Assembly (NCBI GenBank): GCA_963805085.1
Contig: CAWDTA010000002.1
Location: 1,312,001-1,376,000, forward strand
Reading direction: 5' to 3'
Origin: an uncultured Veillonellaceae bacterium
GTDB taxonomy: Bacteria; Bacillota; Negativicutes; JARBTT01
Length of the DNA: 64,000 nt
Shown piece by piece: positions 3,692 through 52,963 of the stretch. Both the position numbers and the translations under genes were made by a program. Position 1 is the stretch's first letter. Each line of letters opens with the position of its first letter. The notes beneath the pieces are model-generated. The model was not told the origin of the DNA. It saw nothing but the letters and a program-made list of their open reading frames with translations, and searched no databases.

Positions 3692-4816
3692 ATGAAAAAC
3701 ATTAACCAAGCAACATCTGTATCCACAAAAGAAGAACCTATAAGAATAGGTGTCGCAACAACACCCGAGGAAAAAAGGGAAGTCTATCGATTTCGCTACA
3801 GCATTTACGCCGAAGAAATCGCTTATGAGCTTCCGTACGCAGACCATGAAAACAAACTTTTATATGAAGAGTTAGATGGTTGGGCTATACTGCTCACGGC
3901 TCATGTCGGGTCGATACTTGTTGGGACAACTAGAGTAAATATTGGAAAAATATCAGATTTCCCCCCCGATATAGTACAGGTCTATTGCATGAAAAAATTT
4001 AGAAAGTTTTATAATGAAGAGGACAATCCTTATTTTACAGTAATTTCAAGGGGAATGGTATCTCCACAATATCGTAGTTCAGCGATAGCGTACTTATTTA
4101 TGGTAAAAATGTATGAGTTATGTTGTGATTATCAAGTACAGTTTTCCTTTTTAGAATGCAATTTTCATTTGATCCAGTTTTATGAGCGCACTGGACAGAT
4201 TCGTATTGATAAAAATACTCTAGATTCTAATGACGGAAGTCCATTAGCCAGTTTGGTTATGCTAATAGACGATGTCGATCATTTGAGAACAGTGGGATCG
4301 CCCTTATTCCGTACTGCGCGCAAAAAAATTGCATTAAATAGGAAAGCAGTTGATTGGTTTTATTCAGAATTTTCTCATGAAATTAAAACAACTATTAATA
4401 GTCGGCTTGTTACCGAAGAAAAACTATGGACTATTATTCATCAATATCTTGGAAACCTGCCTAATTACAGTATATCCATACTGAATGGGTTGTCTGTTTT
4501 AGAAGCAAAGCTCTTTTTGCATTCCTGTGGCAGTATTGTTCATTGTTACGCTGGTGAATATATTGCATCGTGTGGCACTATAAGTCAAGAACTAATTATC
4601 TTATTATCAGGAACAGCATACGCTTCGCAAAAAGGCACTATCAAGCCAGGACAATACTGTGGCGATAATGGGTTGGCATACATAACAAAACATGCTTCAA
4701 CTGTTATAGCTTTAGGCGACTTAGATATTTTAGTCTTATCTAATTACAATTTTAGCAATTTCAGGAAACGCAATTCTGCTATTTCACACAAGATACTTAG
4801 TAATTTACAGAAATAA
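3692..4816 (+). CDS. GNAT-fold N-acyl amino acid synthase (FeeM/LuxI-like) fused to C-terminal cNMP-binding-like domain
   Basis: A-T-T-x-EE...YRFRYSIYAEE, EELD, VGTTR, SR.MV.PQYR, FYER; C-terminal GEYI...G...IILLSG...PGQYCG..GL; paralog at 50404. Confidence 0.75.
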   Translation: MKNINQATSVSTKEEPIRIGVATTPEEKREVYRFRYSIYAEEIAYELPYADHENKLLYEELDGWAILLTAHVGSILVGTTRVNIGKISDFPPDIVQVYCMKKFRKFYNEEDNPYFTVISRGMVSPQYRSSAIAYLFMVKMYELCCDYQVQFSFLECNFHLIQFYERTGQIRIDKNTLDSNDGSPLASLVMLIDDVDHLRTVGSPLFRTARKKIALNRKAVDWFYSEFSHEIKTTINSRLVTEEKLWTIIHQYLGNLPNYSISILNGLSVLEAKLFLHSCGSIVHCYAGEYIASCGTISQELIILLSGTAYASQKGTIKPGQYCGDNGLAYITKHASTVIALGDLDILVLSNYNFSNFRKRNSAISHKILSNLQK

Positions 4817-4822
4817 AAATTG

Positions 4823-4979
4823 AGGCTCAATGCTAAAAGTGTGCTTGACAGTGCTTGTCATTCTGAGAAGATGTTAGCCGACGTGGCAATCTCTATTTGT
4901 TGTCTACTGACCTGCTACTTGAGATTACCGGGTTTTGCTCAGAGTGACAGAAATTCAAGTACACTTTTTGGTAAGAGCC
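4823..4979. repeat. long palindromic REP/MITE-like element
   Basis: nested inverted repeats: aaaagtgtgcttga/tcaagtacactttt, tgtcattctgag/ctcagagtgaca, ggcaatctc/gagattacc. Confidence 0.6.
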
Positions 4980-5113
4980 AAGATTAAATTCTATTATTTT
5001 TCAAAAATTTTAAACTAATTATGCGGGAATAGATAATTTGTTGAAGCTTATGTAAAATTTTGTTATAATTTATAAATATGTAAGTATGTTACTTTCCACA
5101 AGGAGATATTAAT

Positions 5114-6469
5114 ATGAGCTATTTTGAAATGTCTAATATTGCAGTAGTCGCAGCAACTATTTTTACAGCGCCTATGTACGTTTATTTATATATCATTTAT
5201 CGCGAACGTTTTATGGGGATATGGATGATATGTTGGCTGTTACTTTTTATCAGATTCTTTCTCTTTGACTATGGAGTAATAAATTGGGAGAATTCAGCTA
5301 TTGGATCATTCTATTACCAAGCGTTTTATATAGTCCCTGCCTATCTTCTTATTTATGGTATACATAATTTTATCAATCAGCCAATCAAAAAACACTGGCT
5401 ATACGGCTTTGTCATTATAATGACTTTGAGTATTGTGTTTACAGTATATCAAATTCCATTAGTATATCAACTGATTCCTTCTACTTCGTTTGGTTCTGCC
5501 ACACTTATCTATACTGGGTATATTTTATTAAATATTAAAACACGATGTTTGGGGAAATATGTTACCGGATGTTCTTTAATTCTATGGGGTATCCTCACTT
5601 TAACAATTTTTTGTTTATATACATATATTCAGGATACGGTGCTCTATTCAATATTCATTTGCATCTGTGGAATATTACGTCTATTTATTACATGCGGTAT
5701 TCTATTAGTATACTTTGAAAAAACAAGAGCAGATTTGATTAGTAATCAAGAAACTCTCCAACAAGTTAATCTTGAACTTCAGCAGGCTAATCAAGAACTC
5801 AACCATTTCTGTCATTGTGTAGCGCATGATTTTAAAGCGCCATTGCAGTCAATCAATAAACTTTCTAAATATTTTATGCGTGATTATGCTGATAAGGTTG
5901 ACAGTAATGGAAAAGAGTTAATTACACACATTCAAAACAAGTCAGCGGAAGTTGTTAATATTACGGATCATTTGCTGGAACTCTCTAGAATGTCTCAAAA
6001 ACAGATAGCAATGAAAGATATTAAATTGGAGATTTTATTTCGTGAGGTATATGATGAACTAATAGAACTCCAGCCAGAAAGACAAGTCGTTTTTAAGATA
6101 AAACAGCTCCCTATGATTCATGGCGACCCCATTATGATAAAAATACTGGTGGCCAATATCCTTTCTAATGCGCTTAAATATACCCGCAATTGCAAGCAGG
6201 CGATCATTGAAGTCACTTCGGTGGAGAATGAAAACGATTATATTATTTCAGTTAAGGATAATGGTGCAGGCTTTGATATGAGTGAGTCTTCTCGGCTTTT
6301 TAAAATTTTCGAGAGACTTCATTCTGTTGATCAGTTTGAAGGAACAGGTGTCGGGCTTGTGGTATGTCAGAAGATTTTGAAACGGCATAATGGAAGTGCG
6401 TGGCTTACTGGCAAGGTAAATGAAGGGGCAATTTTCTCCTTTAGTTTTCCGAAGAATTTATTGCTTTAA
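5114..6469 (+). CDS. membrane sensor histidine kinase (multi-TM sensor + phytochrome-type HisKA/HATPase)
   Basis: hydrophobic N-terminal ~200 aa; AHDFKAPL H-box, NILSNALKY, DNGAGF, FERLH, GTGVGL. Confidence 0.93.
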   Translation: MSYFEMSNIAVVAATIFTAPMYVYLYIIYRERFMGIWMICWLLLFIRFFLFDYGVINWENSAIGSFYYQAFYIVPAYLLIYGIHNFINQPIKKHWLYGFVIIMTLSIVFTVYQIPLVYQLIPSTSFGSATLIYTGYILLNIKTRCLGKYVTGCSLILWGILTLTIFCLYTYIQDTVLYSIFICICGILRLFITCGILLVYFEKTRADLISNQETLQQVNLELQQANQELNHFCHCVAHDFKAPLQSINKLSKYFMRDYADKVDSNGKELITHIQNKSAEVVNITDHLLELSRMSQKQIAMKDIKLEILFREVYDELIELQPERQVVFKIKQLPMIHGDPIMIKILVANILSNALKYTRNCKQAIIEVTSVENENDYIISVKDNGAGFDMSESSRLFKIFERLHSVDQFEGTGVGLVVCQKILKRHNGSAWLTGKVNEGAIFSFSFPKNLLL

Positions 6470-6635
6470 CAATTTCAGAAAAAACCATCCTGATATGCTG
6501 ATAATAAATAACTTACGATAATACTATAGTTATTATATATAGAAAAATTGTTATGATGTATTTTGCTACTGTAAAGAATTATTTCTCTTTTTTACAATTA
6601 CAGTTTTGATATTAATGAAGGAGATACAAATAATT

Positions 6636-7967
6636 ATGGAATACTTGCAAATGTCGCAAATTGGTACTATAATTACGACTCTTGTAATAATGTTTATATA
6701 TTTATATCTATGCTTTGTTTATTGTGAGCGCAATATGGGGTGGTGGATTGTAGCATGGCTACTCTTTATTGTCCGACTTATCTTTTTTGATACGGACTTT
6801 ATTACCTGGAATAATTCAGTATTAGGATTTATCGTTTATCAACTGCTTTATATTGTTCCGTCGTTTCTGACCATGTACGCTTTTCATCTCTTTACAAATA
6901 AAGAACTAAAGAATTACTGGTTATATGGTATTGCAATCGCTGTTATTTTTGGTATAGTAGTTATTTTGACGAAGTTACCACATGATTACAAATTAGCTCC
7001 GCCTTTATGGTGTTCTGGCATTATACTCATATATACAGGTAAAATGCTGTTAGATATAAAGACGCAAGGTATAGGCAAATATATTACTGGAGTTGCATTT
7101 ATTCTTTGGGGTGCTCTGACCGTGCTATATCCGTTTTTTCATTATGATAAAATTGCTTTGCTAGCTGGACCGATAAGTGGTGTATTACGACTCATCATTA
7201 TGTCTGGTATACTAATGGTCTCTTTTGAAAAAACCAGAGCAGATTTGATTACGAAAGAAGAACATTTTGAAAGCCTACAGCAAGCTAACCAGGAACTCAA
7301 CTATTTTTGCCATTCTGTAGCGCATGATTTTAAAGCACCATTACAGTCAATCAATAAACTTTCTAAATATTTTATGCGTGATTATGCCGACAAGGTTGAC
7401 AGTAATGGACAAGAGTTAATTACACATATTCAAAACAAATCAGCGGAAGTCGTTGGTATTACCGATCATTTGCTGGAACTCTCTAGAATGTCTCAAAAAC
7501 AGATAGCAATGGAAGATATTAAATTGGAGATTTTATTTCGTGAGGTATATGATGAACTAATAGACCTCCAGCCAGAAAGACAAGTGCTTTTTAAGATAAA
7601 GCAACTCCCAATGATTCATGGCGACCCCATCATGATAAAAATACTGGTGGCCAATATCCTTTCCAATGCGCTTAAATATTCCCGCAATTGCAAGCAAGCG
7701 ATCATTGAAGTGACCTCTGTGGAGAATGAAAACGATTATATTATTTCAGTTAAGGATAATGGTGCAGGTTTTGATATGAGTGAATCTTCTAGGCTTTTTA
7801 AAATTTTCGAGAGACTTCATTCTGTTGATCAGTTTGAAGGAACAGGTGTCGGTCTTGTGGTATGTCAGAAGATTTTAAAACGGCATAATGGAAGTGCGTG
7901 GCTTACTGGCAAGGTAAATGAAGGGGCAAATTTCTCCTTTAGCTTTCCGAAGAACGTAATGCCTTAA
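6636..7967 (+). CDS. membrane sensor histidine kinase, tandem paralog of 5114
   Basis: same motifs; kinase core nearly identical to 5114; ATG at 6636 after AAGGAG. Confidence 0.93.
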   Translation: MEYLQMSQIGTIITTLVIMFIYLYLCFVYCERNMGWWIVAWLLFIVRLIFFDTDFITWNNSVLGFIVYQLLYIVPSFLTMYAFHLFTNKELKNYWLYGIAIAVIFGIVVILTKLPHDYKLAPPLWCSGIILIYTGKMLLDIKTQGIGKYITGVAFILWGALTVLYPFFHYDKIALLAGPISGVLRLIIMSGILMVSFEKTRADLITKEEHFESLQQANQELNYFCHSVAHDFKAPLQSINKLSKYFMRDYADKVDSNGQELITHIQNKSAEVVGITDHLLELSRMSQKQIAMEDIKLEILFREVYDELIDLQPERQVLFKIKQLPMIHGDPIMIKILVANILSNALKYSRNCKQAIIEVTSVENENDYIISVKDNGAGFDMSESSRLFKIFERLHSVDQFEGTGVGLVVCQKILKRHNGSAWLTGKVNEGANFSFSFPKNVMP

Positions 7968-8273
7968 TGTCAGACATAGAACAGTCATGTAAAGCGGTTG
8001 TAGGGACAAGAAAGTAATATAGAATTTCTATAGGGGCAGTATCCGTATAATACTTGATATTTATAACTCTGTTCACCATCTATCGATGATTTCGTGACTT
8101 TGGAATTTTTCCAAAGTCTTTTTTTTCTGAAAATTTATTACTGATCATAATTAATTTGATTGCAAAAATTTGTAAAAGTGATAAAATGAATTTATATAGA
8201 AATAGATAATTGAAGTTTATTAATAATAATTATAAATAAGTTTTCGTTTATAGAAAAAGGAGTGAGCTGGTAT

Positions 8274-9788
8274 ATGAATAAAAATATTAATCAGGAACCA
8301 GTAGTTATTGTTTTATTTGGTGCTTCTGGTGATTTATCAGCACGAAAAGTGATTCCAGCTTTATATAATTTACATATAGGTGGATTTTTACCGGAGCAGT
8401 ATTCCATTGTTGGGGTGGCACGTAGTGAGCTGAGCGATGTATTATTGCGCCAGCACTTGCATGATGGAGTGAATAAATTTTCGAGAAGAGGCATAGCGGG
8501 CGAGCAGGAGTGGGATTCTTTTGCTGAGCATGTCCATTATATTCAAGCGGATTATGATGATCGGGAACTTTATGAGCGTTTGATTAACCTAGGGGATCCT
8601 TCTTGGGAAAAGCCGCCAAATATTATTTTTTATTTGGCGACACCACCGAATTTATTTACAGTAGTAATTGAGCAGTTGGGGAAAATACCTGCGCTGCGTG
8701 GCGATATGCGGTATCGGATGGTAATCGAAAAACCTTTTGGTCATGATCTGGAATCGGCACGCGCTTTAAATCAAAATTTACTGCAGGTCTTTGAAGAACA
8801 GCAAATTTATCGTATTGACCATTATCTGGGTAAAGAAACCGTACAAAATATATTAGCATTTCGTTTTGGAAATGCGATTTGGGAACCGATTTGGAATCGT
8901 AACTTTATTGACCATGTGCAAATTACGGTTGCTGAGAAAATTGGGATCGGTCAGCGTGGTCGTTACTATGATTCGGCAGGGGCACTTAGAGATATGATTC
9001 AGAATCATCTGATGCAGCTCTTATGCCTGATAGCGATGGAAGCGCCGTCGGCGTTTACTGCTGATGAAATTCGCAATAAAAAAGTCGATGTGATGAATGC
9101 GATACGCTTAATTACTAAAGCGGAAGTTCCCGCTTATGCGGTGCGTGGACAATATGGACAAGGCTCAGTCGTTGGTAAGCAGGTGCAGGGCTATCGTGAG
9201 GAAAAAGATGTGGGGAAAGCGTCAAATACAGAAACCTTTGCGGCTTTAAAACTATTCGTTGACAATTGGCGTTGGCAAGGCGTTCCGTTTTACTTACGTA
9301 CTGGCAAGTGTATGCCAGGGCGTGTTTCGGAAATTTCGCTGCAATTTCGTCCAGTGCCACATCATCCATTTTCACATTTAAATACACAAGTGTTTCAGCC
9401 TAATCGTTTAGTGATTCAAATTGAACCAAATGAAGGCGTAGTACTTCGGACGCAGGCAAAAGAGCCTGGACTAGGCATGCAGTTAAAACCGGTGGATATG
9501 ATGTATTGTTATCAAGACGTGTTTCATCAACCGTCACCAGATGCGTATGAAACATTGTTGGTCGATATTATGAGAAATGATCCGAGTTTGTTTATGCGAG
9601 CAGATCAGGTGGAAGCGGCTTGGACCGTGATTCAACCGATTCTTGATGTTTGGAGTGAAACGAAAGAGTTGAACTTCCCGAACTATCAAGCTGGGCAATG
9701 GGGACCGTCAGAAGCGGAAAATTTAGTAGCACGTGATCGGAAAACTTGGCTTTTACCAATTTCTTTTGAACCAAAACGAGGGAGTTGA
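8274..9788 (+). CDS. zwf: glucose-6-phosphate 1-dehydrogenase
   Basis: GASGDL, EKPFG, YRIDHYLGKE. Confidence 0.98.
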   Translation: MNKNINQEPVVIVLFGASGDLSARKVIPALYNLHIGGFLPEQYSIVGVARSELSDVLLRQHLHDGVNKFSRRGIAGEQEWDSFAEHVHYIQADYDDRELYERLINLGDPSWEKPPNIIFYLATPPNLFTVVIEQLGKIPALRGDMRYRMVIEKPFGHDLESARALNQNLLQVFEEQQIYRIDHYLGKETVQNILAFRFGNAIWEPIWNRNFIDHVQITVAEKIGIGQRGRYYDSAGALRDMIQNHLMQLLCLIAMEAPSAFTADEIRNKKVDVMNAIRLITKAEVPAYAVRGQYGQGSVVGKQVQGYREEKDVGKASNTETFAALKLFVDNWRWQGVPFYLRTGKCMPGRVSEISLQFRPVPHHPFSHLNTQVFQPNRLVIQIEPNEGVVLRTQAKEPGLGMQLKPVDMMYCYQDVFHQPSPDAYETLLVDIMRNDPSLFMRADQVEAAWTVIQPILDVWSETKELNFPNYQAGQWGPSEAENLVARDRKTWLLPISFEPKRGS

Positions 9789-9794
9789 AATAGA

Positions 9795-10514
9795 ATGAAA
9801 AAAATTTATCAAGATATGAATGAAGTATGCGTAAAGACTGCAGAGTGGTTTGTTGCTGAAGCGAACAAGGCGATGGCAAAACATGGTAAATTTACAGTCG
9901 CCCTTTCGGGTGGCTCAACACCACGTCAACTGTTTGCGGAGCTGGCCAAACCAGAGTGGCAAAAGCAAATGGATTGGTCAAAAGTTATTGTCTTTTGGGG
10001 TGATGAACGATTTGTGGCACCGACTGATGCGCAAAGTAATCAAAAAATGGCACGTGAAACTTTGTTAAATCATGTGCCTATTGCTCCCAAAAATATCATT
10101 CCCGTTCCATTTTTAGCAACTGCAGAGCTATCAGCAAAGCAATACGAGTTTGAGCTTAAACAAATATTTGCTGATTTACCGAAATTTGATCTCATTTTAT
10201 TGGGCTTAGGTGCCGATGGACATACGGCTTCCCTTTTCCCGGGCTCGTTGGCATTGACGGAGGAAACCCGTTGGGTTTGCCCGTCGCAGCCCAAAGCAGG
10301 GGGACCAGAAAGAATTACGTTGACGTATCCAGTGATCAACAATGGAGCTTTGGTTTGCTTCTTAGTTACAGGGGCTGAAAAAGCGGCGATGATAAAAGAG
10401 ATATTAGAAGCTACACCCGGTAGCGAAGTTTATCCGGCACAGCGAATTCAGCCAACTTCAGGAAGAATTTTGTGGCTGTTAGACCAAGCGGCAGCAAGTG
10501 CATTAAAAAAATAG
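9795..10514 (+). CDS. pgl: 6-phosphogluconolactonase
   Basis: ALSGGSTP, WGDER, GLGADGHTASLFP; lies between zwf and gnd. Confidence 0.97.
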   Translation: MKKIYQDMNEVCVKTAEWFVAEANKAMAKHGKFTVALSGGSTPRQLFAELAKPEWQKQMDWSKVIVFWGDERFVAPTDAQSNQKMARETLLNHVPIAPKNIIPVPFLATAELSAKQYEFELKQIFADLPKFDLILLGLGADGHTASLFPGSLALTEETRWVCPSQPKAGGPERITLTYPVINNGALVCFLVTGAEKAAMIKEILEATPGSEVYPAQRIQPTSGRILWLLDQAAASALKK

Positions 10515-10552
10515 CAAACAGATTAGCGTGAAAACGGCAGAGGAGGAATAGT

Positions 10553-11983
10553 ATGGCTAAGTTATATGATATTGGGCTAATAGGTCTGGCTGTTATGGGA
10601 CAAAATATTGTTTTAAATATGAGCAATCATGGTTTTCGTGTCGCGGTTTATAATCGGACAAGCAGTAAAACGGAGGAATTTAAAAAAACAATCGGAAATA
10701 ATGTGAACATCGGTGCTGCGCATACGATTTCTGAATTTGTGCAGATGATTGAGAAACCACGGAAGATTATGCTGATGGTAAAGGCAGGCGACCCGGTGGA
10801 TAAGATGATATCTGAACTTCTACCGTATTTGGATGAGGAAGATATTATTATTGATGGAGGGAATTCATTCTTTCTTGATACAAAGCGGCGTTTTAAGGAA
10901 CTAGCTGATAAAAATATTCGTTTTATCGGTATGGGCGTATCTGGTGGTGAGGAAGGTGCTCTACATGGTCCAAGCCTTATGCCAGGTGGTGATTTCTCCG
11001 CCTATCAAGAAGTGGCACCGATTTATCAAAAGATTGCGGCTAAGGTGCCCGGGGGCGTTTGTTGCACGTATGTCGGAAAAGATGGTGCTGGGCATTATGT
11101 GAAAATGGTGCATAATGGCATCGAATATGGTGATATGCAACTGATTAGTGAGGCCTATTATATTATGAAAATGGTCTTGGGCTTAAAAGCGGTAGAGATG
11201 CATGATATTTTTGATGAATGGAATAAAGGCGAGCTGAATTCTTATTTAGTTGAAATTACGCGGGATATTTTATTGAAATACGATGAGGAAACAGGAGTGC
11301 CATTGGTTGAAGTGATTCTCGACAAAGCGGGACAAAAAGGTACCGGGAAATGGACCTCACAAAGTGCTTTAGACCTAGGTGTACCAGTGCCTACGATTAC
11401 TGAGGCAGTGTTTGCTCGTTGTATGTCTGGCTATAAGGTTGAAAGATTGGCCGCTGCAGAAATTCTTTATGGACCTAAACCTATATATGAGGGTGATCGT
11501 GAATCTTTAATCCAAGCAATTCATGATGCCTTATATGCTTCGAAAATTTGTTCCTATGCACAGGGTTTTACACTTTTAAAAGCGGCAAGTGATGAATATA
11601 AATGGAATCTGAATTATGGTGATATGGCACTTTTATGGCGGGGCGGTTGCATTATTCGGGCGCAATTTTTAGATCGTATCAAAGATGCGTTTTCTGCCAA
11701 TGTAGATTTGCCAAATCTCATGCTTGATCCATTTTTTAGAAATCTATTGGCGAAGACGCAAGAGAATTGGCGGCTCGTTGTCAGCTTATGTAAGCAACAA
11801 GGAATCCCAACGCCTGCGTTTTGTGCTTCGTTGGATTATTATGATAGCTATCGGCAGGCTGTGCTTTCTGCCAATATGATACAAGCGCAACGTGATTATT
11901 TTGGCGCGCATACCTATGAACGTGTTGATAAACCGGGCGTTTTTCATAGCCAATGGTTGGTTGAGGGCGCAGAAAAGGGATAA
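10553..11983 (+). CDS. gndA: NADP-dependent 6-phosphogluconate dehydrogenase (decarboxylating)
   Basis: GLAVMG, IIDGGN, VKMVHNGIEYGDMQ, QAQRDYFGAH. Confidence 0.98.
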   Translation: MAKLYDIGLIGLAVMGQNIVLNMSNHGFRVAVYNRTSSKTEEFKKTIGNNVNIGAAHTISEFVQMIEKPRKIMLMVKAGDPVDKMISELLPYLDEEDIIIDGGNSFFLDTKRRFKELADKNIRFIGMGVSGGEEGALHGPSLMPGGDFSAYQEVAPIYQKIAAKVPGGVCCTYVGKDGAGHYVKMVHNGIEYGDMQLISEAYYIMKMVLGLKAVEMHDIFDEWNKGELNSYLVEITRDILLKYDEETGVPLVEVILDKAGQKGTGKWTSQSALDLGVPVPTITEAVFARCMSGYKVERLAAAEILYGPKPIYEGDRESLIQAIHDALYASKICSYAQGFTLLKAASDEYKWNLNYGDMALLWRGGCIIRAQFLDRIKDAFSANVDLPNLMLDPFFRNLLAKTQENWRLVVSLCKQQGIPTPAFCASLDYYDSYRQAVLSANMIQAQRDYFGAHTYERVDKPGVFHSQWLVEGAEKG

Positions 11984-12054
11984 AGATCGTCAAGTATCAG
12001 GGGAGCATGAATAAAAAATAGTTGTACTTGTAGCGATAAAAAGGAAAATTACTT

Positions 12055-12083
12055 TTGACAAATGACTGAAAAATCGCTATACT
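12055..12083 (+). promoter_or_regulatory. sigma-A promoter of tRNA-Cys
   Basis: TTGACA-N17-TATACT. Confidence 0.8.
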
Positions 12084-12132: not shown

Positions 12133-12207
<75 letters not shown>

Positions 12208-13589: not shown

Positions 13590-13600
13590 TTTACATAACG

Positions 13601-13631: not shown

Positions 13632-13817
13632 AAAGGTTTAGCCCGTAATGTCGCTCCTCGTTATGTCTAAACCTGCAACCTAGCAGGTGGGCATCATAGT
13701 TGTGATTTTGCTATCCACTCAAGGTGGTTCAGCAGCTGCAAAACATCCGATTCCCTAATGAAAAAAGTAGGTTAGACATAATTAAGGTTGGCGTGCACCG
13801 CAGGCGTCATCTCTATG
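13632..13817 (-). ncRNA. ssrS: 6S RNA
   Basis: minus strand GCCTGCGGTG...CATTAGGGA...GCCCACCTGC...GCAGGTTTAGAC...CATTACGGGC forms a rod-like fold with Bacillota 6S motifs; promoter TTGCAT-N17-TATTAT at 13852-13824. Confidence 0.85.
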
Positions 13818-17693: not shown

Positions 17694-17770
17694 GACTCTG
17701 TAGCTCAGCTGGATAGAGTGTTTGACTACGAATCAAAAGGTCGCAGGTTCGACTCCTGCCAGGGTCACCA
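17694..17770 (+). tRNA. tRNA-Arg(ACG)
   Basis: GACTCTG...CAGGGTC-A-CCA, anticodon loop CTACGAA, GGTTCGACTCC; terminator at 17782-17812. Confidence 0.97.
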
Positions 17771-45021: not shown

Positions 45022-45045
45022 ATTTAGGAAACAGTTAAAAAACTA

Positions 45046-45200
45046 AAAGCAGATGAGTTGCAACGAAAACAACAAGTCGGCAAAAGATGAATCTCTCAAA
45101 CTCCCTGCGGTCAAACAAAAGGCCTTCAAAGCCGAGTGCTAGTAAGATTCATCTATATTGCCTTTATTGAACGTTTTCTTATGCAAATCATCTGTTTTTT
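45046..45200. repeat. palindromic REP/MITE-like repeat, copy 2
   Basis: shares aacaagtcggcaaaaga.gaatct, aaactccct..ggtcaaacaaaa.gccttcaaagc and tagtaagattc.tctat.ttgcctt with 38011-38196. Confidence 0.75.
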
Positions 45201-45241
45201 TTCATATTATGGTATTCTGGGCAGGTATACTATAGTTGCTG

Positions 45242-45802
45242 TTATTGTATTGGTGTCTTAACTGCAATTTCAATTGTTGTTTCATGTTTAGCAGCGGCAT
45301 GTTCAAACATTGCATCGGAAGTATAGTTACTCCACACAGCTTGAACATTGGCAATGTAGGTATCTTTATTGAATGGGTTTGCCAATTGATTTTTTGTGCT
45401 TTCTATGAGTTTATCAAAGAAAGCATCGGGTAAAGTAATCGTACGCATTGCGAGCAAGATATCTAAGTGACTGTCAACAAGATATAAACTGATTGTTTTT
45501 TCTTTTACATCGATCAGTTTTGGTTGTTGATCCTCAGTATGAAAGTGAGCGGAATATGGGCTGTCTCCCCAACCGTTAATGATACCGTCAATTTTATATA
45601 ATAAGAAAATAATATCATTTTCTACAAATAGCCCTAACTCAATTTTTCCTGTGCGGAAGGCCTCAATCGCTATTAAATCAACTCTGCTCAATTTTAAAAT
45701 AAACATCGCTCCATTGATATCGTATTGAAAAATACCGCCGTCACCTTGCGCTTTTATTGGAAGAGGAAATTTTTCTCCTACCTGAAAACTTGTATATGAC
45801 AT
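45242..45802 (-). CDS. hypothetical protein
   Basis: 186-aa ORF with GGAGG RBS. Confidence 0.8.
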   Translation of the reverse strand: MSYTSFQVGEKFPLPIKAQGDGGIFQYDINGAMFILKLSRVDLIAIEAFRTGKIELGLFVENDIIFLLYKIDGIINGWGDSPYSAHFHTEDQQPKLIDVKEKTISLYLVDSHLDILLAMRTITLPDAFFDKLIESTKNQLANPFNKDTYIANVQAVWSNYTSDAMFEHAAAKHETTIEIAVKTPIQ

Positions 45803-45995
45803 AAAAACCTCCGACTATTAAAACTTATTCATAATTATTTATCTACTATATCACATATTGCCATAAATAAAAAAGATGGTATGAACGTTTCGTGTATTTC
45901 ATAATAAAAAATAAGTTTATCTTACTTTCGAAAAGGGGAATGTGATTTTTAGGCGAAGTAAGCAAGGATAGATCAAATGGTAAGGGAGTGTTTTT

Positions 45996-46832
45996 ATGGC
46001 TGAATCCGTATTACTAAATGCATTAGCGCAAGTTGCTGGTTATATCCCAAAACTTTTAACAAGTAAAATTGGGATGGTAGTTTGTGATAGAGAGAAATGG
46101 ATAGCTTCTAGTGCTATTGATGAAATAAAACATCAAATTGTGATTGGCGAACCAATCAAAGCAGGCTCAGCGGCGTATGATGCGATGCAAAAGAATCATC
46201 GTGTCGTTGTAGAGGTTGCAAAAGAAGTTTATGGGATTCCTTATATTGCGGTTAGTATACCGATTGTTGAAAATGGTGTAGTGGTGGGCGCTGCTGCGAT
46301 TCATGAATCTTTAGAACGTAAACAAGTATTGCAAGAGACTGCAAATAATCTTTCCGATGCGGCGAACATGATGTCGGAGGCAATGCAGGCGATTTCATCG
46401 CAAGCGAAGCAGTTGTCGATAGCGAGTCATAGTCTCAAGGATTTAATAAGCATTGCGCATCAAGAAGTAAGTGAGACGGATTCGGTTATTAGCTTCATCA
46501 AAAATGTTGCCAGCGAAACTAATTTATTAGGATTAAATGCGGCGATTGAAGCGGCACGTGTTGGGGAACAAGGTCGTGGCTTTGGTGTTGTGGCAACGGA
46601 AGTTCGCAAATTGGCTGTAAATAGTGCAAACTCCGCAACAGAAATTACCCAGACATTACTGCAAATTAGTGCATCCATTGGCCGCATCAATAATGAGATT
46701 GAGATTGTTGATTCTGTCAATCATAAGCAGTCAGATACGATTGAAAATATTGCAGGGAAAAGTAAGGAATTACAAGATATTGCGAAAAGATTGGCGGAAA
46801 TTGCAGCTAGTTTAAATAAAGAACATGATTAA
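45996..46832 (+). CDS. soluble methyl-accepting chemotaxis protein
   Basis: [33 protein letters not shown]; no TM segments. Confidence 0.93.
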
Positions 46833-46842
46833 ATAATAAAAA

Positions 46843-46900
46843 TTTATAGTTAATAGAAAAAGTGCTAGTAAAAACTAGCACTTTTTCTATTAACTATAAA
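46843..46900. terminator. long perfect hairpin terminator
   Basis: tttatagttaatagaaaaagtgctagt-aaaa-actagcactttttctattaactataaa. Confidence 0.8.
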
Positions 46901-47105
46901 ATGACAGCGAGGCAGCCTATAATGCCTAAATATAGATTTTTATATTAATATGAAAACAATAAAAATTATGATACAATAGTCCTGATATCGCTAAAAAAAA
47001 TAAATGATATTGATTATCAATATAACAATGGTGATCATGAGGAAAAGTTAGTAAATATAAGCAAACAGTCGTAATCATACGTTAAGATTGTTAGGAGAGT
47101 TCATT

Positions 47106-48185
47106 ATGCTACAAGAAAAGTTATCAATTTTCTTTGGAAGTAATGTTCCTTTAAGAGAAAGATTATATTATGCAATATCTGCGGCAGGCATGGTAAGTGC
47201 GATAGTTGGTCTGATTAGTACATTTATGGCAGAACTCTCTCTTGGCGGAATTTTAGCGGCAGCATCTTGCATTATGACGTTAATTGCAATATCAATTTAT
47301 GTGATCAAAACTAAAAATTTTGACCGAGCATCTATCTTGATTAGTACTATTTTTAATCTTTTGATATTTCCGATTAACTTTATTTATGCGGGTGGCATTG
47401 AGGGTGGAATGCCGATGTATTTTATTATGGGGATATTCGCCACTTTTTTATTGGTAACGGGTAAAATTAGAAATATTTTAATTTTACTTTTTTTTATTGT
47501 TTATATAGCACTTCTTCTATATGGTTATTACAATCCCGATATGATAGTTCCGTTTCCTAGCACAGAAGCCCGTATCGTAGATTTAATTTTTGCTATGGTT
47601 ATCGTCTCTGGATTTACTGGTATTGTTATCAGCATTATTGTATATGAATATTCTACAGAACATGAAAAGGTGGAGCTGTTAAATCATCGGTTGCATCAGG
47701 TTGCAATCAAAGATCCTCTTACCAATTTATTTAACCGCAGATATTTAATGAATCAATTAAACTATCAGATAGAGAAAGCAAACCAAGAAGAGTATGATCT
47801 GGCATTAATTATTTTTGATATTGATTTTTTTAAGAATATCAATGATACCTATGGACATCTGATTGGTGATGAAGTATTAAAAGAATTTTCAAAATTACTT
47901 TCCAGTCAAATTCGGGGTGATGATATCGTCGGTCGTTATGGGGGAGAAGAATTTTTCCTTATTCTAGTTGAGACGGATAGTGAAGATGCAATTCATTTAG
48001 CAGAAAGAATAAGAAAAAAAGTATCTAATAGTATACTGTCGAAAAAAATAACCAATTTAATTACGATTAGTGGAGGAATTGGTATTTATCAGCCTGACAT
48101 GAGTGTTGAACAATTAATAGTGGCAGCGGATAAGAATCTTTATAAAGCAAAATCTGAAGGTCGCAATAAAATTATTAGCATATAG
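47106..48185 (+). CDS. membrane diguanylate cyclase
   Basis: multiple TMs; DPLTNLFNRR, DIDFFK.INDTYGH, RGDD I-site, RYGGEEF. Confidence 0.95.
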   Translation: MLQEKLSIFFGSNVPLRERLYYAISAAGMVSAIVGLISTFMAELSLGGILAAASCIMTLIAISIYVIKTKNFDRASILISTIFNLLIFPINFIYAGGIEGGMPMYFIMGIFATFLLVTGKIRNILILLFFIVYIALLLYGYYNPDMIVPFPSTEARIVDLIFAMVIVSGFTGIVISIIVYEYSTEHEKVELLNHRLHQVAIKDPLTNLFNRRYLMNQLNYQIEKANQEEYDLALIIFDIDFFKNINDTYGHLIGDEVLKEFSKLLSSQIRGDDIVGRYGGEEFFLILVETDSEDAIHLAERIRKKVSNSILSKKITNLITISGGIGIYQPDMSVEQLIVAADKNLYKAKSEGRNKIISI

Positions 48186-48487
48186 ATTTAACTATTATCA
48201 ATGAATTATATATAAAATCAGTCCTATAACAACATCGTGATAATTTACAATGTTGTTATAGGACTGATTTTATTATTTTGTAAATATTTAAAGTAAAATG
48301 CGCATTGTCCATGTGTGCAAGCCAATGCGTATAGTTAAGGAAGCAACATTATTTTTTAATAGGTGAAATAAATGTATTAATTTGGAAGGATATGTCTTGT
48401 TTATACAGAATAAAGAAATAGTATATAAAAATTAATGGGGTATTTATTATATTTTACATACTAATATTCTAAGTTGTAGGAGATATT

Positions 48488-50158
48488 ATGGAAAGTTTAT
48501 CTTTAGCATTTCTTAGCTCATTAGGCTCTATGGTTGCGATTATTGGGATCTACAGTTATATTTATGCCATATACAGAGAACGATATATGGGAATATGTGC
48601 AATCAGCTGGAGTTTATTTTTATCGCGTTATGTTATCTTTGATTCAGGAATTTTTGAGTGGAAACAATCAGTATTGGGATTGTTTATATTTCAGATGATC
48701 ATTATCTGGAGTGTACTATTATTTTTGTATGGTACATATGGTTTTTTTAATAAGTCGTATAATAAGAAGTTAGCATGTTATAGTGGTATAGGGATAATGA
48801 TAGCTTTGGTTATTATGGATTGTTTTGTTTCTGATTTAACGTATAAATTGATAATTCCTGTCTGTTTAGGTGTATATGCAGGTATGTCAATTGGATGGAT
48901 TTATATTAAAAACGAAAAAGTCCAAGGATTTGGAGCTTTATGTGTTGGCTATGCTTACATTGGATGGAGTCTTCTTAGTATTTTCATGCCGTTTGCTATT
49001 AATATTAAGTGGTGTTCTCCTTTGGGGTATGTTTTAGGAGGTTTATTTCGTTTAATTATAGCTTTAGGAACATTAATTGTTTATTTTGAAAAAAATCGCA
49101 GGGAGTATATCAAAAAAGAATCAGAGTATCGTTTATTAGCCGAAAATGCCGTTGATGTCATTTACTCTTATCAACTATTACCGGAGCGAAAACTTAAATA
49201 TATCAGTCCGGCAACCTTACATACTACAGGCTATACACCTGAGGAATATTATGCGAATAATAACTTGCTTTTTGAGATCGTCCATAGCGAGGATAGCCCG
49301 ATGCTAAAGAACTTTTATCGTGATTTAGCTAATTTAAATGGTAAACTCTTAACCTTGCGCTTGATTACGAAGCAAGGTAATGTTATCTGGGTAGAGCAAA
49401 AGAGTGTACCGGTCTATGATGAGAACGGTGAAATTGCCGAGATACAAGGAATCATCCGTGATATTACGGACAGAAAAGATCTGGAAAATATTGCAGCGCA
49501 GGTTGACCGGATGAATATGATAGGAAATATGGCGGCAACGGTAGCGCATGAGATCAGGAATCCGATGACAACTGTATTAGGATATATACAATTTTTATCA
49601 TTAAAAAGAAAATATAAAAGCGAAAAAGATATCTTTGAATTGATGATCGATGAACTCAATCGAACCAATGATATTATTCGTGAATATTTGTCTTTATCCA
49701 ACCAAAAGCTAGTTGATTTGAAAAAAGCGTCTTTGAATAAAATTTTGCAGGCCCTATATCCATTGCTTGAGGTTGATGGTTGCTCTAAAAAAGTAAAGGT
49801 AAAACTGGAGCTTGAGGATATTCCTGAGTTGTTATTGGATAGGAATGAGATTCGGCAGTTGGTGCTGAATATGGTGCGTAATGGCATTGAGGCGATGTCA
49901 AAGGGTGGCGAATTAACGCTGGGGACAAAATTAGAAAATAATGAAGTCATTTTATTTATTTGTGATCAAGGTACTGGAATCGATGAAGCAGTCCTTGAAA
50001 AGTTGGGAACCCCGTTTTTTACGACGAAAGCCAATGGTACAGGCTTAGGGCTTTCTATTTGTTATCGGATCGCGAATCGGCATAATGCAACGATCAAAAT
50101 CAATTCCAGTAAAGCTGGCACTACATTTAGAATTTGTTTTAATCGTGATTTAGCGTAA
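48488..50158 (+). CDS. membrane sensor histidine kinase (multi-TM + PAS + NtrB/sporulation-kinase-like core)
   Basis: YRERYMG sensor; PAS ending GIIRDITDRK; AHEIRNPM, NMVRNG, PFFTTK..GTGLGL. Confidence 0.93.
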   Translation: MESLSLAFLSSLGSMVAIIGIYSYIYAIYRERYMGICAISWSLFLSRYVIFDSGIFEWKQSVLGLFIFQMIIIWSVLLFLYGTYGFFNKSYNKKLACYSGIGIMIALVIMDCFVSDLTYKLIIPVCLGVYAGMSIGWIYIKNEKVQGFGALCVGYAYIGWSLLSIFMPFAINIKWCSPLGYVLGGLFRLIIALGTLIVYFEKNRREYIKKESEYRLLAENAVDVIYSYQLLPERKLKYISPATLHTTGYTPEEYYANNNLLFEIVHSEDSPMLKNFYRDLANLNGKLLTLRLITKQGNVIWVEQKSVPVYDENGEIAEIQGIIRDITDRKDLENIAAQVDRMNMIGNMAATVAHEIRNPMTTVLGYIQFLSLKRKYKSEKDIFELMIDELNRTNDIIREYLSLSNQKLVDLKKASLNKILQALYPLLEVDGCSKKVKVKLELEDIPELLLDRNEIRQLVLNMVRNGIEAMSKGGELTLGTKLENNEVILFICDQGTGIDEAVLEKLGTPFFTTKANGTGLGLSICYRIANRHNATIKINSSKAGTTFRICFNRDLA

Positions 50159-50190
50159 GAAGAAATCACAAATGTAATAATTACAATATG

Positions 50191-50241
50191 AAAAAGCCTA
50201 TTAAGGTTGTAAAATTTTGCAACTTTAATAGGCTTTTTTTT
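50191..50241 (+). terminator. intrinsic terminator after 48488 kinase
   Basis: aaaaagcctattaaggttg...caactttaataggc + T-run. Confidence 0.85.
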
Positions 50242-50403
50242 GTTTTTTCTCTTTTTTGTGCAATCTTTGGCTATTTTTGCAAGGATACTATAAGGTAGCT
50301 ACCGTATCCCTTAAGTCAAGGGGGTGATAGTTATGAAAGTGTAATTTTTAGTTAAATCGCAGGGGATTTACACAAATAACTATGATGAAAAGGAGCTTAA
50401 AAA

Positions 50404-51573
50404 ATGAACAATAACAATCTAGGACAAGTTACAATGAAAGAAAAAAATATGGGGGAAGGATTTAAAGTTTGTGTTGCTAATACTTTAGCAGAAAAAAAAG
50501 CAATATATCAATTTCGATATAAAGTTTACGTTGAGGAAATGGCAAAGTATAAACTAATGAATCGTAATAAAGAATTATCAGATGAGATGGATGAATGGGG
50601 GCTATTGATCTATGTCAAAGATGGCGAAGAAGTAGTTGGTACAGCAAGAATGAATATTGGCAAAATGCTAGATTTTCCTGAAGAAATTATTAAAGAGTTA
50701 GCTATGAAGGAATTTCATGAATATTATGTTAGTACAAATAGTGATTATCAAGTGGCTTTGCTTAGTAAATTAATGGTTGCCGTAGAATATAGAAGTTCTT
50801 CGGTTCTTTATTTAATGCTGGTTAAACTTTATGAATTTCATTCTAAAACAGGCGTTCAATTTTCTTTTACAGGATGTAGTTTACATTTATTACGCTTTTA
50901 TGAAAAAATGGGCTTTCATCGCTATAGTAAAAATTTTACTGATTTTGGTTATGGATTATTAAGTCCAGTTGTGGTACTAGTTGATGATGCTAAACATTTT
51001 GCTTCAATACGGTCACCACTTTTTCGTATAGTCAGAAAAAAAGCAACTATAAATTCAAAAGATGTTGAATGGCTTCATGAAAAGTTGACGAAAAAATTAA
51101 ATAATGTGAATAGTCAATTGGTTACGGCAGATGAATTATGGTCAATTTTATGTGAGCGTTTACATGCTTTACCTACGGAAGTCATCGAAATATTGCAGGA
51201 TTTATCGATAGAAGAGGCAAAACTCTTTCTTCATGCCTGCAGTAGTATTGTTCAATGCGCAGCTGGAGAAGCCATTACGGTACAAGGCGATGTCAGTTAT
51301 TCGCATAATATATTACTATCGGGGCGTTTAAAATCGTTAACTTTTATAAATCCAATAAAGGAATATAAGATACCTGGTCAATATTTTGGTGCCAATGGGT
51401 TAACCGAGCATCATAAACATTTAGAAGAGATTGTGACGGCGACGCAATCAGAAATATTGGTGCTAACCGGTTTTACTTTCCCGAATTTTAGTAAAGCTAA
51501 TTTAGACATTGCCCATAAGATAATGAAAAAGATGATCACGATGACAAGAAACCCTGTATTTCATTTAAAATAA
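50404..51573 (+). CDS. GNAT-fold N-acyl amino acid synthase (FeeM/LuxI-like) + cNMP-binding-like domain
   Basis: YQFRYKVYVEE, DEMD, VGTAR, SKLMV..EYR, FYEKMGF; GEAITVQGD...ILLSG...PGQYFG; colinear with 3692. Confidence 0.75.
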   Translation: MNNNNLGQVTMKEKNMGEGFKVCVANTLAEKKAIYQFRYKVYVEEMAKYKLMNRNKELSDEMDEWGLLIYVKDGEEVVGTARMNIGKMLDFPEEIIKELAMKEFHEYYVSTNSDYQVALLSKLMVAVEYRSSSVLYLMLVKLYEFHSKTGVQFSFTGCSLHLLRFYEKMGFHRYSKNFTDFGYGLLSPVVVLVDDAKHFASIRSPLFRIVRKKATINSKDVEWLHEKLTKKLNNVNSQLVTADELWSILCERLHALPTEVIEILQDLSIEEAKLFLHACSSIVQCAAGEAITVQGDVSYSHNILLSGRLKSLTFINPIKEYKIPGQYFGANGLTEHHKHLEEIVTATQSEILVLTGFTFPNFSKANLDIAHKIMKKMITMTRNPVFHLK

Positions 51574-51622
51574 CGATAACAAATACACCTCCTCCATTAT
51601 CATTTAGATTTTGGAGGAGGTG

Positions 51623-52963
51623 CTAACAAATGAAAGCAAATAAAAAAGTAGTTCCTTTGTCACTGGTACTAATTTTAATCGTAGCGTGGTGCCTGTTTGC
51701 TATTTGATAGCAGATAGGAATACCGAGACCCGCCCCCGCTTTTTTTGTAGTAATGAAGGGGGTGCCTAATTTATCTAATACCTCGGGAGCAATTCCAAAG
51801 CCTTGATCATTGATTGACAGGATAACACGATGATCTTCTACGAAGGTTCGAATAGTTATTTTTCCACCCTTTGGCATGGCATCAACACTGTTGCTTATAA
51901 GGTTCAATAGTAGTTGACGTATTTCATTTTCATCTAGCGATAAATCAGGAATGTCTTGGAGATCAAGGATTACCTGTATTTTTAAGGAATTGATATGTTC
52001 ATGGATGAATGGCAGTAAGTCTTGAATCATTGTGTTTAGAGAACAAATTTTTAGATTAGCTACTTTTTGTTTAGATAAAGAAATGTATTTTTGAATGATG
52101 GTATTAACGATGTCGATTTCTTCGATCATTAGTTTGAATTCATCTGTATTAACATTGGCTTTATCTTTTTTTTCGAGAACTTGCAAGTAACCGCGGATTG
52201 TAGTAATCGGGTTTCTAATTTCATGGGCGACGGTAATTGCCATATTTCCAACCATAGTAATTCGATCAGGCAAAAGCTGTTGGTAATAAAAAGCATCGAG
52301 TTCAGTTCCTTTCATTAACTGATACTGCATTTTTTTGCCTAGTAAATCCATTCTGGTTTTCTCAAAATAGACCATTAAAGTACCAATAGCGATAACGAAG
52401 CGTAATATGCCGCCCAGTAAGTAGCACCAAGGAAGAAGATAAATTAATACTTCTGGTATCAAAAATCCAGAGATGTTTAGTAAACTCCACGAGATATAGG
52501 AATAGCCAGTAATAAAGCGTCCAATTCCTTTTAATTTTAAATGGCGAATAAAAAGTAGACCAACCCATATTAAAGCGGAGCAACCAAAAAATAGAGGAAG
52601 TAGTAGTTTATAAACCAAAGATGACAATATAGTGTTTAAAACAACATTTAGGGTAAATGTTGTGATAGCTATGTATAGCCAGCCTTTATTGATAGGTTTG
52701 TTGATAAAGCTATGATTTGCCAACAAAAACGTCAAACTATTCATATAAATAAGTAGTTGATATGTTAACAAGCACCAATTTGATTGTTGCCAATCTAGTA
52801 AATTTGCATCGAAAAACAGATATCGAGAAAGAAGAATGAGCCAACTTAAAGACCATAGCCCCATATACCGTTCACGATATAGTGCAAAAAGATATATATA
52901 GATAATCATCATTGAAATAGTACCGAGTGATGATATAATTATTGATAAAGAAAGATAATCCAT
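51623..52963 (-). CDS. membrane sensor histidine kinase (multi-TM, PAS deleted)
   Basis: YRERYMG sensor; AHEIRNPI, NLISNS, PFITTK..GAGLG. Confidence 0.92.
   Translation of the reverse strand: MDYLSLSIIISSLGTISMMIIYIYLFALYRERYMGLWSLSWLILLSRYLFFDANLLDWQQSNWCLLTYQLLIYMNSLTFLLANHSFINKPINKGWLYIAITTFTLNVVLNTILSSLVYKLLLPLFFGCSALIWVGLLFIRHLKLKGIGRFITGYSYISWSLLNISGFLIPEVLIYLLPWCYLLGGILRFVIAIGTLMVYFEKTRMDLLGKKMQYQLMKGTELDAFYYQQLLPDRITMVGNMAITVAHEIRNPITTIRGYLQVLEKKDKANVNTDEFKLMIEEIDIVNTIIQKYISLSKQKVANLKICSLNTMIQDLLPFIHEHINSLKIQVILDLQDIPDLSLDENEIRQLLLNLISNSVDAMPKGGKITIRTFVEDHRVILSINDQGFGIAPEVLDKLGTPFITTKKAGAGLGIPICYQIANRHHATIKISTSDKGTTFLFAFIC

Follow-up and report, generated by a model that had tools for sequence, protein, structure and literature searches.

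The 64,000-nucleotide stretch analysed here (the window) comes from an uncultured Veillonellaceae bacterium of the class Negativicutes (assembly GCA_963805085.1, contig CAWDTA010000002.1, positions 1,312,001 to 1,376,000) and carries two gene groups in which an acyltransferase of the GNAT fold, fused to a domain resembling cyclic nucleotide monophosphate (cNMP)-binding domains, lies beside histidine kinases with a common membrane sensor. In the first group, acyltransferase copy 1 (3692..4816, + strand) is followed by two short sensor kinases (5114..6469 and 6636..7967, both +), and a terminator-like hairpin (8096..8118, +) closes this acyltransferase-kinase-kinase unit, with no terminator-like site before the end of the second kinase gene. 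The most likely start of that gene is the previously chosen ATG at 6636, and the TTG at 6606 that begins the longest open reading frame (ORF) is disfavoured. In the second group, a sensor kinase with a PAS domain (48488..50158, +) is followed by an intrinsic-terminator-like hairpin (50191..50238, +; a 20-bp stem and a T run directly after the kinase stop codon), a conserved leader (50280..50403, +) and acyltransferase copy 2 (50404..51573, +), with which a fourth sensor kinase (51623..52963, -) is convergent. A first-pass annotation had proposed that such neighbours are the synthase and the receptor of an N-acyl amide signal.

The two acyltransferases can be aligned from end to end with 41% identity (E 1e-95). 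Copy 1 consists of a FeeM/PF13444-type GNAT domain (about residues 18-190), a helical linker and the cNMP-binding-like domain (about residues 284-361), and copy 2 has the same two domains. The description as two colinear paralogs at these coordinates, with the motifs RFRY..Y.EE, D..D.W, VGT.R and FYE, thus holds, as judged from the identity of the two proteins, the Pfam matches and a profile and alignment of the family. Both copies exceed the cut-off of 22.4 bits for PF13444 (Acetyltransf_5; 22.9 bits for copy 1, 35.1 for copy 2). Membership in PF21926 (FeeM) is borderline: copy 2 reaches 26.0 bits with a cut-off of 27, copy 1 gives no match at E<=0.01, and the acyltransferase paralogue at locus L006 scores 30.1 bits. 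The nearest named ESM Atlas clusters of the GNAT half are all FeeM-type, and the model for exosortase-associated acyltransferases, TIGR03694, matches weakly (26-31 bits vs a cut-off of 112). In the AlphaFold2 model of copy 2 (pLDDT 88.3, pTM 0.87), the GNAT domain is joined by a helical linker to a beta-barrel domain; Foldseek aligned the model with several GNATs at TM 0.63-0.83 on the target, in agreement with the GNAT alpha/beta fold, and with the N-acyl-homoserine lactone (AHL) synthase TofI (3p2h) at TM 0.69. The proposed kinship with FeeM and other N-acyl amino acid synthases is therefore supported by PF13444, by PF21926 on the L006 paralogue and by the Atlas clusters. The enzymes differ from other FeeM and PF13444 synthases in their C-terminal cNMP-binding-like domain, in their pairing with kinases and, often, in a B12-binding/radical S-adenosylmethionine (radical-SAM) partner. 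LuxI-type AHL synthases have a characteristic N-terminal R...Y/F...E/D pattern. The enzymes have a similar pattern and a related fold, but neither copy matches PF00765 (Autoind_synth) at E<=0.01, and the comparison with LuxI that had been drawn does not extend to membership in that family. The top match of the GNAT half to solved structures, a C3 ADP-ribosyltransferase (E about 0.01), covers 44 residues locally and was judged to be due to chance. A homologue search with the acyltransferase gave 116 matches, and those that carry names all come from Negativicutes (Anaerosinus, Sporomusa, Pelosinus).

The C-terminal domain scores just below the PF00027 (cNMP_binding) cut-off of 27.5 bits (26.5 for copy 1, 22.2 for copy 2). 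A profile of the 37-member family matches the solved cNMP-binding domains of PKG and PKA with E values from 2e-24 to 1e-16, so that the identity as a cNMP-type domain is no longer in doubt, and the copy 2 model matches the corresponding domains of CNG, HCN and KCNH channels and of MloK1 in Foldseek, in line with this fold. In canonical cassettes, a conserved Glu (FGE) and a conserved Arg (R-S/T-A) contact the cyclic phosphate and the ribose. These residues are replaced in 36 of the 37 members: the commonest residues are A (24), T (4), R (3), D (1) and V (1) in the Glu column, and the Arg column holds H (22), Q (7), Y (5), N (2) and R (1). Copy 2 reads FGANGL...KHLEE at this site, and FGE...PRT is kept solely in the most divergent member, P0117. 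Since both contacts are lost in nearly the whole family, it is unlikely that the domain binds cAMP or cGMP in the usual way, and the earlier idea that the enzyme is gated by a cyclic-nucleotide-type ligand has become doubtful.

All four kinases have HATPase_c/HisKA cores (Pfam), and all share an N-terminal stretch of about 205 amino acids. The invariant residues of this stretch include Y29, E31, R32, M34, G35, W41, R47, F51, D52 and W58 as well as G147, G152, R189 and F201-E-K-x-R205; they agree with the motifs noticed at first and thus confirm that the kinases have one hydrophobic sensor in common. The two short kinases combine the sensor (1 to about 205 in the first) with a DHp/CA core that carries an HDFKAPL H-box, and they are devoid of a PAS domain. 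The kinase at 48488 consists of sensor, PAS, HisKA with an HEIRNP H-box, and HATPase, and the kinase at 51623 has the sensor and an HEIRNP-type core without PAS. The proposal that different kinase classes are involved is therefore correct. In the AlphaFold2 model of the PAS kinase (pLDDT 82.5), the sensor forms seven helices (residues 4-29, 32-52, 62-86, 93-113, 122-141, 148-170 and 176-219), which are connected by loops of about 2-10 residues; there is no extracytoplasmic domain, and the last helix continues into the cytoplasmic linker. With seven helices and such short loops, the predicted sensor lies almost wholly within the membrane, as had been assumed. Given a cytoplasmic C-terminus, we infer from the model that the conserved R-E-R behind helix 1 faces the cytoplasm, as does the Lys-rich loop that follows helix 3. 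Eight copies of the sensor from this genome, scanned singly, gave no Pfam or NCBIfam match even at E<=10. In the ESM Atlas, the sensor part found only unnamed clusters at 0.90-0.94; clusters named HisKA_7TM, 7TMR-DISM and MASE3 appeared at 0.82-0.83, below the usable level, and were discarded. A Foldseek search of the PDB with the kinase model returned matches to the PAS/DHp/CA part only and is uninformative on the membrane domain. The tandem kinases of the first group show a striking distribution of sequence similarity: their sensor DNA is 51-69% identical and their core DNA 93-97%, and the change between the two levels is abrupt, near nucleotide 700. The second gene is therefore a mosaic, which may have arisen either by gene conversion of the core or by replacement of the sensor. 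With diverged sensors and nearly identical cores, the tandem kinases offer two inputs on one output module.

We next examined the linkage between enzyme and sensor. This genome encodes eight sensor kinases and five acyltransferase loci (tblastn; one enzyme truncated to 130 aa), and seven of the eight kinases are immediate neighbours of an acyltransferase gene, the lone kinase being located at contig 2:965,9xx. We then extended the comparison to 401 genomes of the same class, with up to four enzyme and seven sensor candidates scored per genome and five sensor matches unlisted, so that the copy numbers are lower bounds. The enzyme was found in 63 and the sensor in 67 of the 401 genomes, both together in 62, the enzyme alone in one and the sensor alone in five; the three largest sampled families (99, 93 and 61 genomes) have neither gene. 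Outside this genome, 115 of the 118 listed enzyme copies have a listed sensor match within 3 kb, in 100 cases upstream on the same strand, in nine downstream on the same strand and in six on the opposite strand, and the remaining three have no listed sensor on their contig. Conversely, 118 of the 143 listed sensor copies in other genomes lie within 3 kb of a listed enzyme copy. The sensor is thus enriched beside the acyltransferase across genomes, the test on which the first-pass annotation had staked its proposal, and the pairing can be regarded as a conserved module. Moreover, one and the same sensor occurs on two unrelated DHp/CA cores, and both types of kinase adjoin the enzyme. The linkage tracks the sensor rather than the kinase core, in support of the earlier argument that the coupling holds across kinase classes.

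Outside the module, the sensor leads a life of its own. A profile search of 1.84 billion cluster representatives detected 874 proteins at E<=1e-3 and 46 at E<=1e-30. Ten distant members were scanned, and in all of them the sensor is followed by PAS; the outputs of distant members are histidine kinases, hybrid kinases, GGDEF-EAL and GAF-HD-GYP. We inspected 79 loci with distant sensors (L029-L107) from Nitrospirota, Thermodesulfobacteriota, Chloroflexota, Spirochaetota, Planctomycetota, other Bacillota and further groups; the genome scan used a narrower alignment for this purpose, the broad sensor alignment being insufficiently conserved. None of the 79 loci has the acyltransferase within about 6 kb at E<=0.01, while the same search recovered 21 of 21 enzyme genes in 20 control loci. 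Set against the linkage within the class, this indicates that the tie to the enzyme is confined to a single branch of a sensor family that is itself widespread, and the idea of a sensor dedicated to it, as originally put forward, could not be upheld. The only recurrent neighbour cluster in the distant loci turned out to be an ORF antisense within the sensor gene in the one example checked and was dismissed. Such a variety of fused outputs is what one sees in promiscuous membrane sensors like the MASE domains. A preprint on MASE9-12 (10.1101/2021.11.05.467447) describes, in the part available, a seven-helix domain, MASE11, with similar partners, for which ligand binding within the membrane is proposed. 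Like MASE11, the sensor is an integral-membrane N-terminal domain of about seven helices with PAS and histidine kinase, GGDEF-EAL and HD-GYP outputs; unlike established MASE-type domains, it has no match among the Pfam and NCBIfam models. MASE11 (founding member SO1387) and MASE12 (BAS0914/BA5029) were compared by description alone, and by this measure the sensor may be a MASE domain of that preprint.

That the sensor fold also exists away from the enzyme (which is present in 0 of 79 distant loci) brings up the question whether the enzyme is simply regulated by the kinase pathway, or binds the kinase directly and modulates it, or is a protein acylase tied to a cNMP-like ligand, with the sensor reading something unrelated. 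For the pair of the synthase CqsA and the kinase CqsS, the available text of PMC13729885 reports that CqsS is inhibited by CqsA, which binds to its cytoplasmic part, so that a synthase can act as a protein partner. Moreover, there are protein-acetylating fusions of a cNMP domain to a GNAT: mycobacterial Rv0998 is reportedly a cAMP-regulated protein acetyltransferase in which a cNMP-binding-type domain serves as an allosteric switch. Rv0998, however, has the opposite domain order and belongs to a different GNAT subfamily, the GNAT studied here being of the FeeM/PF13444 rather than of the protein-acetyltransferase type, and the phosphate-binding residues are degenerate in our family. A linkage that stays with the sensor when the whole kinase core is exchanged would also be unexpected if the enzyme contacted the DHp/CA part, and the private radical-SAM partner discussed below points to small-molecule chemistry. 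As weak evidence in the same direction, no fusion of kinase and enzyme was present among the proteins longer than 681 aa. The predicted complex of the PAS kinase and acyltransferase copy 2, computed with alignments, scored 0.01 and 0.21 with a mark of 0.32 and was not used either way. Taken together, we regard an enzyme that is only an output or a partner of the kinase as unlikely.

The neighbourhoods of the module were compared in 24 clustered loci, 20 of which were fetched from relatives. The canonical unit is a seven-helix-PAS kinase followed by the acyltransferase. Seven of the 20 loci from relatives also encode, 3' of the enzyme, a protein of the B12-binding/radical-SAM type with about 575 aa (for example L012:9459-11177(+) and L018:4685-6445(-), with 38 other places across the class). 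The class holds 41 homologues at E<=1e-30 in 34 genomes, of which 40 lie within 500 bp downstream of an enzyme gene on the same strand; 40 of the 122 enzyme copies have such a partner. This private association supports a biosynthetic role of the enzyme in small-molecule chemistry. In the present assembly, which is 83% complete, tblastn found no such partner at E<=1e-5. In one metagenomic protein of 656 aa, the enzyme is continuous with residues 1-258 of the radical-SAM protein. Such a fusion was seen only once and may be an artefact of assembly or of a frameshift.

The radical-SAM protein is also of interest with respect to a different explanation, membrane-lipid homeostasis. In the DesK/Des system, a membrane kinase responds to the state of the membrane and switches on a lipid-modifying enzyme. 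By analogy, the sensor would read the state of the membrane and the kinase would switch on the enzyme, with or without the radical-SAM protein; the enzyme would make or modify a lipid containing an amino acid for the cell's envelope, and no signal would pass from cell to cell. The best NCBIfam model of the radical-SAM protein is indeed TIGR04072, a 'lipid biosynthesis B12-binding/radical SAM protein', even if the protein is far below every NCBIfam cut-off, including that of TIGR04072 (53 bits vs 360). In addition, the sensor family is common without the enzyme, as expected of a general sensor of the membrane state, and the enzyme of the canonical unit has its own promoter and leader 3' of a terminator, like a regulated target gene. 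The products of PF13444 enzymes are N-acyl amino acids or aminolipids, and the aminolipid N-acyltransferases OlsB and GlsB belong to the family as well (PMC11631085, as far as its available sections go). According to the same sections, mature aminolipids are made in two steps with the help of a second acyltransferase (PMC11631085), but no O-acyltransferase of the OlsA/PlsC type is among the conserved neighbours in the 24 loci, which favours a mono-acyl product over a mature membrane aminolipid. Moreover, the closest Pfam and Atlas relatives of the enzyme are FeeM-type, and no OlsB-type NCBIfam model is among its matches at E<=0.01. Finally, up to five enzyme and eight strongly diverged sensor paralogues are hard to fit into one homeostatic loop. 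Lipid homeostasis therefore seems an improbable function of the module.

The region between kinase and acyltransferase revealed an unexpected regulatory element. We compared 21 kinase-to-acyltransferase spacers of 159-328 bp (one in the window, one at L006 with the leader at 3555-3660(-), and 19 in L009-L028), and hairpins similar to the terminator at 50191..50238 can be read after the kinase stop codon in the other spacers as well. In the window, the leader contains an AGGA box (50282-50285, +) and CGTAT (50303-50307, +), a hairpin that buries the GGGGG Shine-Dalgarno sequence of a mini-ORF, and the mini-ORF ATG AAA GTG TAA itself (50333-50344, +), which has three codons and is separated by 59 nt from the Shine-Dalgarno sequence of the acyltransferase. 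The same order recurs in the other spacers: AGGA, CGTAT 16-17 nt further on, a hairpin burying GGGGG or GGAGG, and the mini-ORF, about 51-59 nt ahead of the enzyme's Shine-Dalgarno sequence in most cases. Going by the consensus, the AGGA...CGTAT boxes may be a sigma-H-like promoter, which is a lead only. The mini-ORF has exactly three codons in 15 of the 21 spacers (MKT six times, MKV twice, and MNI, MIV, MVT, MTT, MNA, MQT and (TTG)KH once each); among the others, two are start-stop, two have five codons, one is ambiguous, and L019 has none. The length of the mini-ORF is preserved where its stop codon (TAA, TAG or TGA) and its synonymous codons differ, which argues that it is translated. The first hairpin has six consensus pairs in 13 sequences, three of them with compensatory changes; it was the only one recovered by consensus folding of the 13 leaders, whose 3' halves align poorly. 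In individual predicted folds, an upstream CUCUCC-like anti-Shine-Dalgarno stretch pairs with the Shine-Dalgarno sequence of the enzyme. The leader pattern was present in 12 different spacers between kinase and acyltransferase genes, and the 79 distant loci gave no match; in this genome the true motif is present at two canonical loci only. Rfam found nothing at the gathering score in the spacers, and a permissive scan gave sub-threshold matches only, mostly on the terminator hairpin. Judged from these features, the leader could be a new ribosome-dependent attenuator.

The closest precedent that we found for the three-codon leader is that of vmlR in B. subtilis. There, stalling of the ribosome on a three-codon upstream ORF (uORF) encoding Met-Ile-Asn, uORF(MIN), controls the downstream gene (PMC9226507, in its available part). 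The two leaders share the three-codon uORF with its own Shine-Dalgarno sequence in a stem-loop and the sequestered, here predicted, Shine-Dalgarno sequence of the main gene (PMC9226507, same part). They differ in that no intrinsic terminator is evident here between mini-ORF and main gene and in that an acyltransferase rather than an ABCF factor is regulated; the comparison implies no similarity of sequence. This likeness allows one to imagine that the acyltransferase, with or without the radical-SAM protein, is a determinant inducible by stress or antibiotics via ribosome stalling on the mini-ORF, and the kinase a separately regulated neighbour. We consider this very unlikely. We know of no FeeM-type enzyme that modifies drugs, the adjacency of 115 of the 118 enzyme copies to one sensor subfamily would be left unexplained, and the copy 1 locus of the window, where the acyltransferase precedes the short kinases, is devoid of the three-codon leader.

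The two kinds of loci also differ in their regulator genes. Divergent from acyltransferase copy 1, the window encodes a response regulator with a receiver (REC) domain and an AraC-type helix-turn-helix (2099..3184, -; Response_reg 3e-24, HTH_18 1.6e-16). Among the 24 clustered loci, such a divergent receiver-AraC gene is present at all five short-kinase loci (that of the window, two on L007, L021 and L023); the acyltransferase is upstream of the kinase in four of them and the kinase upstream in L021. On the basis of this arrangement, the protein at 2099..3184 is likely the cognate regulator of the two short kinases. One of the L007 copies of the module (L007:7010-10273; contig 2, about 1,719,000-1,722,300 in this genome) is decaying: its acyltransferase is shortened to 130 aa, the AraC gene has no receiver domain and a receiver remnant lies just upstream, and the sensor kinase is intact. 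Beside the PAS-type kinases no regulator gene was found in 20 loci, and there is none near the kinase at 48488; these kinases presumably feed a shared regulator encoded elsewhere in the genome.

The distribution of the module invites speculation about such a regulator. Spo0A, called with the TIGR02875 cut-off, is present in 78 of the 401 genomes, and the module was found in 60 of these 78 and in three of the 323 others. Clades are not independent, and these counts describe a distribution rather than a test. The three module genomes without a Spo0A call are this one (83% complete), a second whose Spo0A is split and a third of 85% completeness, and a genome of the same genus (G001) has Spo0A (E 3e-120). 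The HEIRNP cores match the AtoS, ZraS and KinD models far below their cut-offs (KinD 164 bits vs 775; AtoS higher), and Foldseek aligned the kinase model with KinB (3d36) at 31% identity. A link between the module and the sporulation phosphorelay is thus no more than a possibility.

How might such a module work? Lipophilic synthase/membrane-kinase pairs, among them LuxM/LuxN, are textbook systems in Vibrio. The kinases of this type are hybrids whose C-terminal receiver feeds a histidine phosphotransfer protein; no Response_reg domain was detected by Pfam in any of the four kinases of the window. What the module does share with this type is a multi-helix sensor without a periplasmic domain beside the synthase, as follows from the adjacency in 115 of 118 cases and from the seven-helix model. 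In the best comparison, CqsA/CqsS, the synthase gene likewise adjoins that of a membrane kinase whose sensor has several helices and no large periplasmic domain, the lipophilic ligand binds within the transmembrane domain, and there are several parallel receptor channels per cell (PMC13729885, from the portion at hand). The differences are considerable: CqsA is a pyridoxal phosphate-dependent enzyme and not a GNAT, and CqsS has six helices and a C-terminal receiver feeding LuxU, as compared to seven helices and no receiver. The comparison implies no relationship of sequence, and the sensing of a ligand by the kinases studied here is putative.

We suggest that enzyme and kinase make up a two-gene signalling module specific to one lineage, the Negativicutes that encode Spo0A. 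In the cytoplasm, the FeeM-type enzyme would condense acyl-acyl carrier protein (acyl-ACP) with an amino acid or an amine to yield a lipophilic N-acyl amide; acyl-ACP is the substrate of N-acyl amino acid synthases and of AHL synthases alike (PMC11631085, sections cited above). In many relatives, and not in this genome, the co-operonic B12/radical-SAM enzyme would tailor the product, which would move into the membrane, where the seven-helix domain of the neighbouring kinase would sense it. The short kinases would signal to the divergent REC-AraC protein and in this way close a feedback loop on the acyltransferase-kinase operon. The supply of enzyme may be controlled by the leader mini-ORF, which resembles ribosome-stalling attenuators, and by a ligand of the degenerate cNMP-like domain. 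Of this picture, the gene linkage, the identity of the domains, the topology model and the structure of leader and terminators come from the data, and the chemistry, the relation of ligand to receptor and the outputs are inferred. Several lines of evidence support a synthase-sensor pair: the near-obligate adjacency that was kept through the swap of the kinase core, the precedent of CqsA/CqsS with its ligand bound in the transmembrane domain (PMC13729885, as above), and the private radical-SAM partner. The presence of several diverged pairs per genome (five enzyme and eight kinase genes here) fits parallel signal channels. That the neighbouring kinase senses a membrane-partitioning N-acyl amide made by the enzyme is nevertheless a tentative proposal, to which we would assign slightly less than an even chance.

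This caution has several reasons, all of which speak against a synthase-receptor pair. Without a listed enzyme gene within 3 kb are 25 of the 143 listed sensor copies elsewhere and one of the eight here. With 874 cluster representatives, the sensor family by far exceeds the enzyme family with its 116 matches, and it is found in other phyla without such a neighbour; the fold alone therefore does not imply this ligand. On the side of the enzyme, the sequence profile of the GNAT half matches solved AHL synthases only at E 0.18 (5w8c) and 1.1 (3p2f), and its catalytic equivalence to FeeM or LuxI is putative. With a terminator after the kinase and a leader of its own for the enzyme, kinase and enzyme are not simply co-transcribed in the canonical arrangement. 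Moreover, no exporter gene is conserved nearby in the 24 loci, and no Spo0A above the TIGR02875 cut-off is encoded in this 83%-complete assembly.

The window is rich in other signalling genes: it encodes a GGDEF-EAL protein (14-1288), a protein with the signalling domain of methyl-accepting chemotaxis proteins (MCP; 45996-46832) and a GGDEF protein (47088-48185), the latter directly upstream of the PAS kinase. The MCP and GGDEF genes also adjoin the module, in the same order, in the closest relative sampled (L009). After the first module, an oxidative pentose-phosphate operon (8262-11983) encodes glucose-6-phosphate dehydrogenase, 6-phosphogluconolactonase and 6-phosphogluconate dehydrogenase. 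Among RNA features, the window contains a cyclic di-AMP (c-di-AMP) riboswitch (RF00379, 84.8 bits, 61834-61972, -) upstream of a 614-aa ORF (59860-61704, -), a 6S RNA gene (RF00013, 69.2 bits, 13636-13809, -) and tRNA genes at 12133-12204 and 17694-17767.

Firmicutes are thought to rely on peptide signals, and the first-pass annotation had accordingly pointed out that peptide signalling is the norm in Bacillota. The host does belong to this phylum; since, judged by the names of its homologues, it is a diderm Negativicute, a lipophilic signal would be less out of place than that argument implied. Full-text searches of the literature, judged by the titles and abstracts listed and not by supplementary tables, brought up nothing that dealt with the module, the fusion or the leader. 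A synthase gene next to that of a membrane kinase follows a known logic; its components and the lineage are new here. It is tempting to go one step further and to imagine the first acyl-amide autoinducer-type system in Bacillota, in which many species would make B12/radical-SAM-tailored signals with a synthase gated by the ribosome and by a non-nucleotide ligand, and in which paired seven-helix kinases would carry separate channels into a developmental decision such as sporulation; in this full form the idea is unlikely. The module in any case offers an unnamed seven-helix sensor family, a non-canonical cNMP-like pocket, a private B12/radical-SAM partner and a three-codon leader. To our knowledge, the native role of N-acyl amino acid synthases is still unsettled. 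If the enzyme and the kinase of these diderm, spore-forming Firmicutes are indeed synthase and receptor, acyl-amide signalling would be extended to a new phylum, and the N-acyl amino acid synthases would be given a native receptor.

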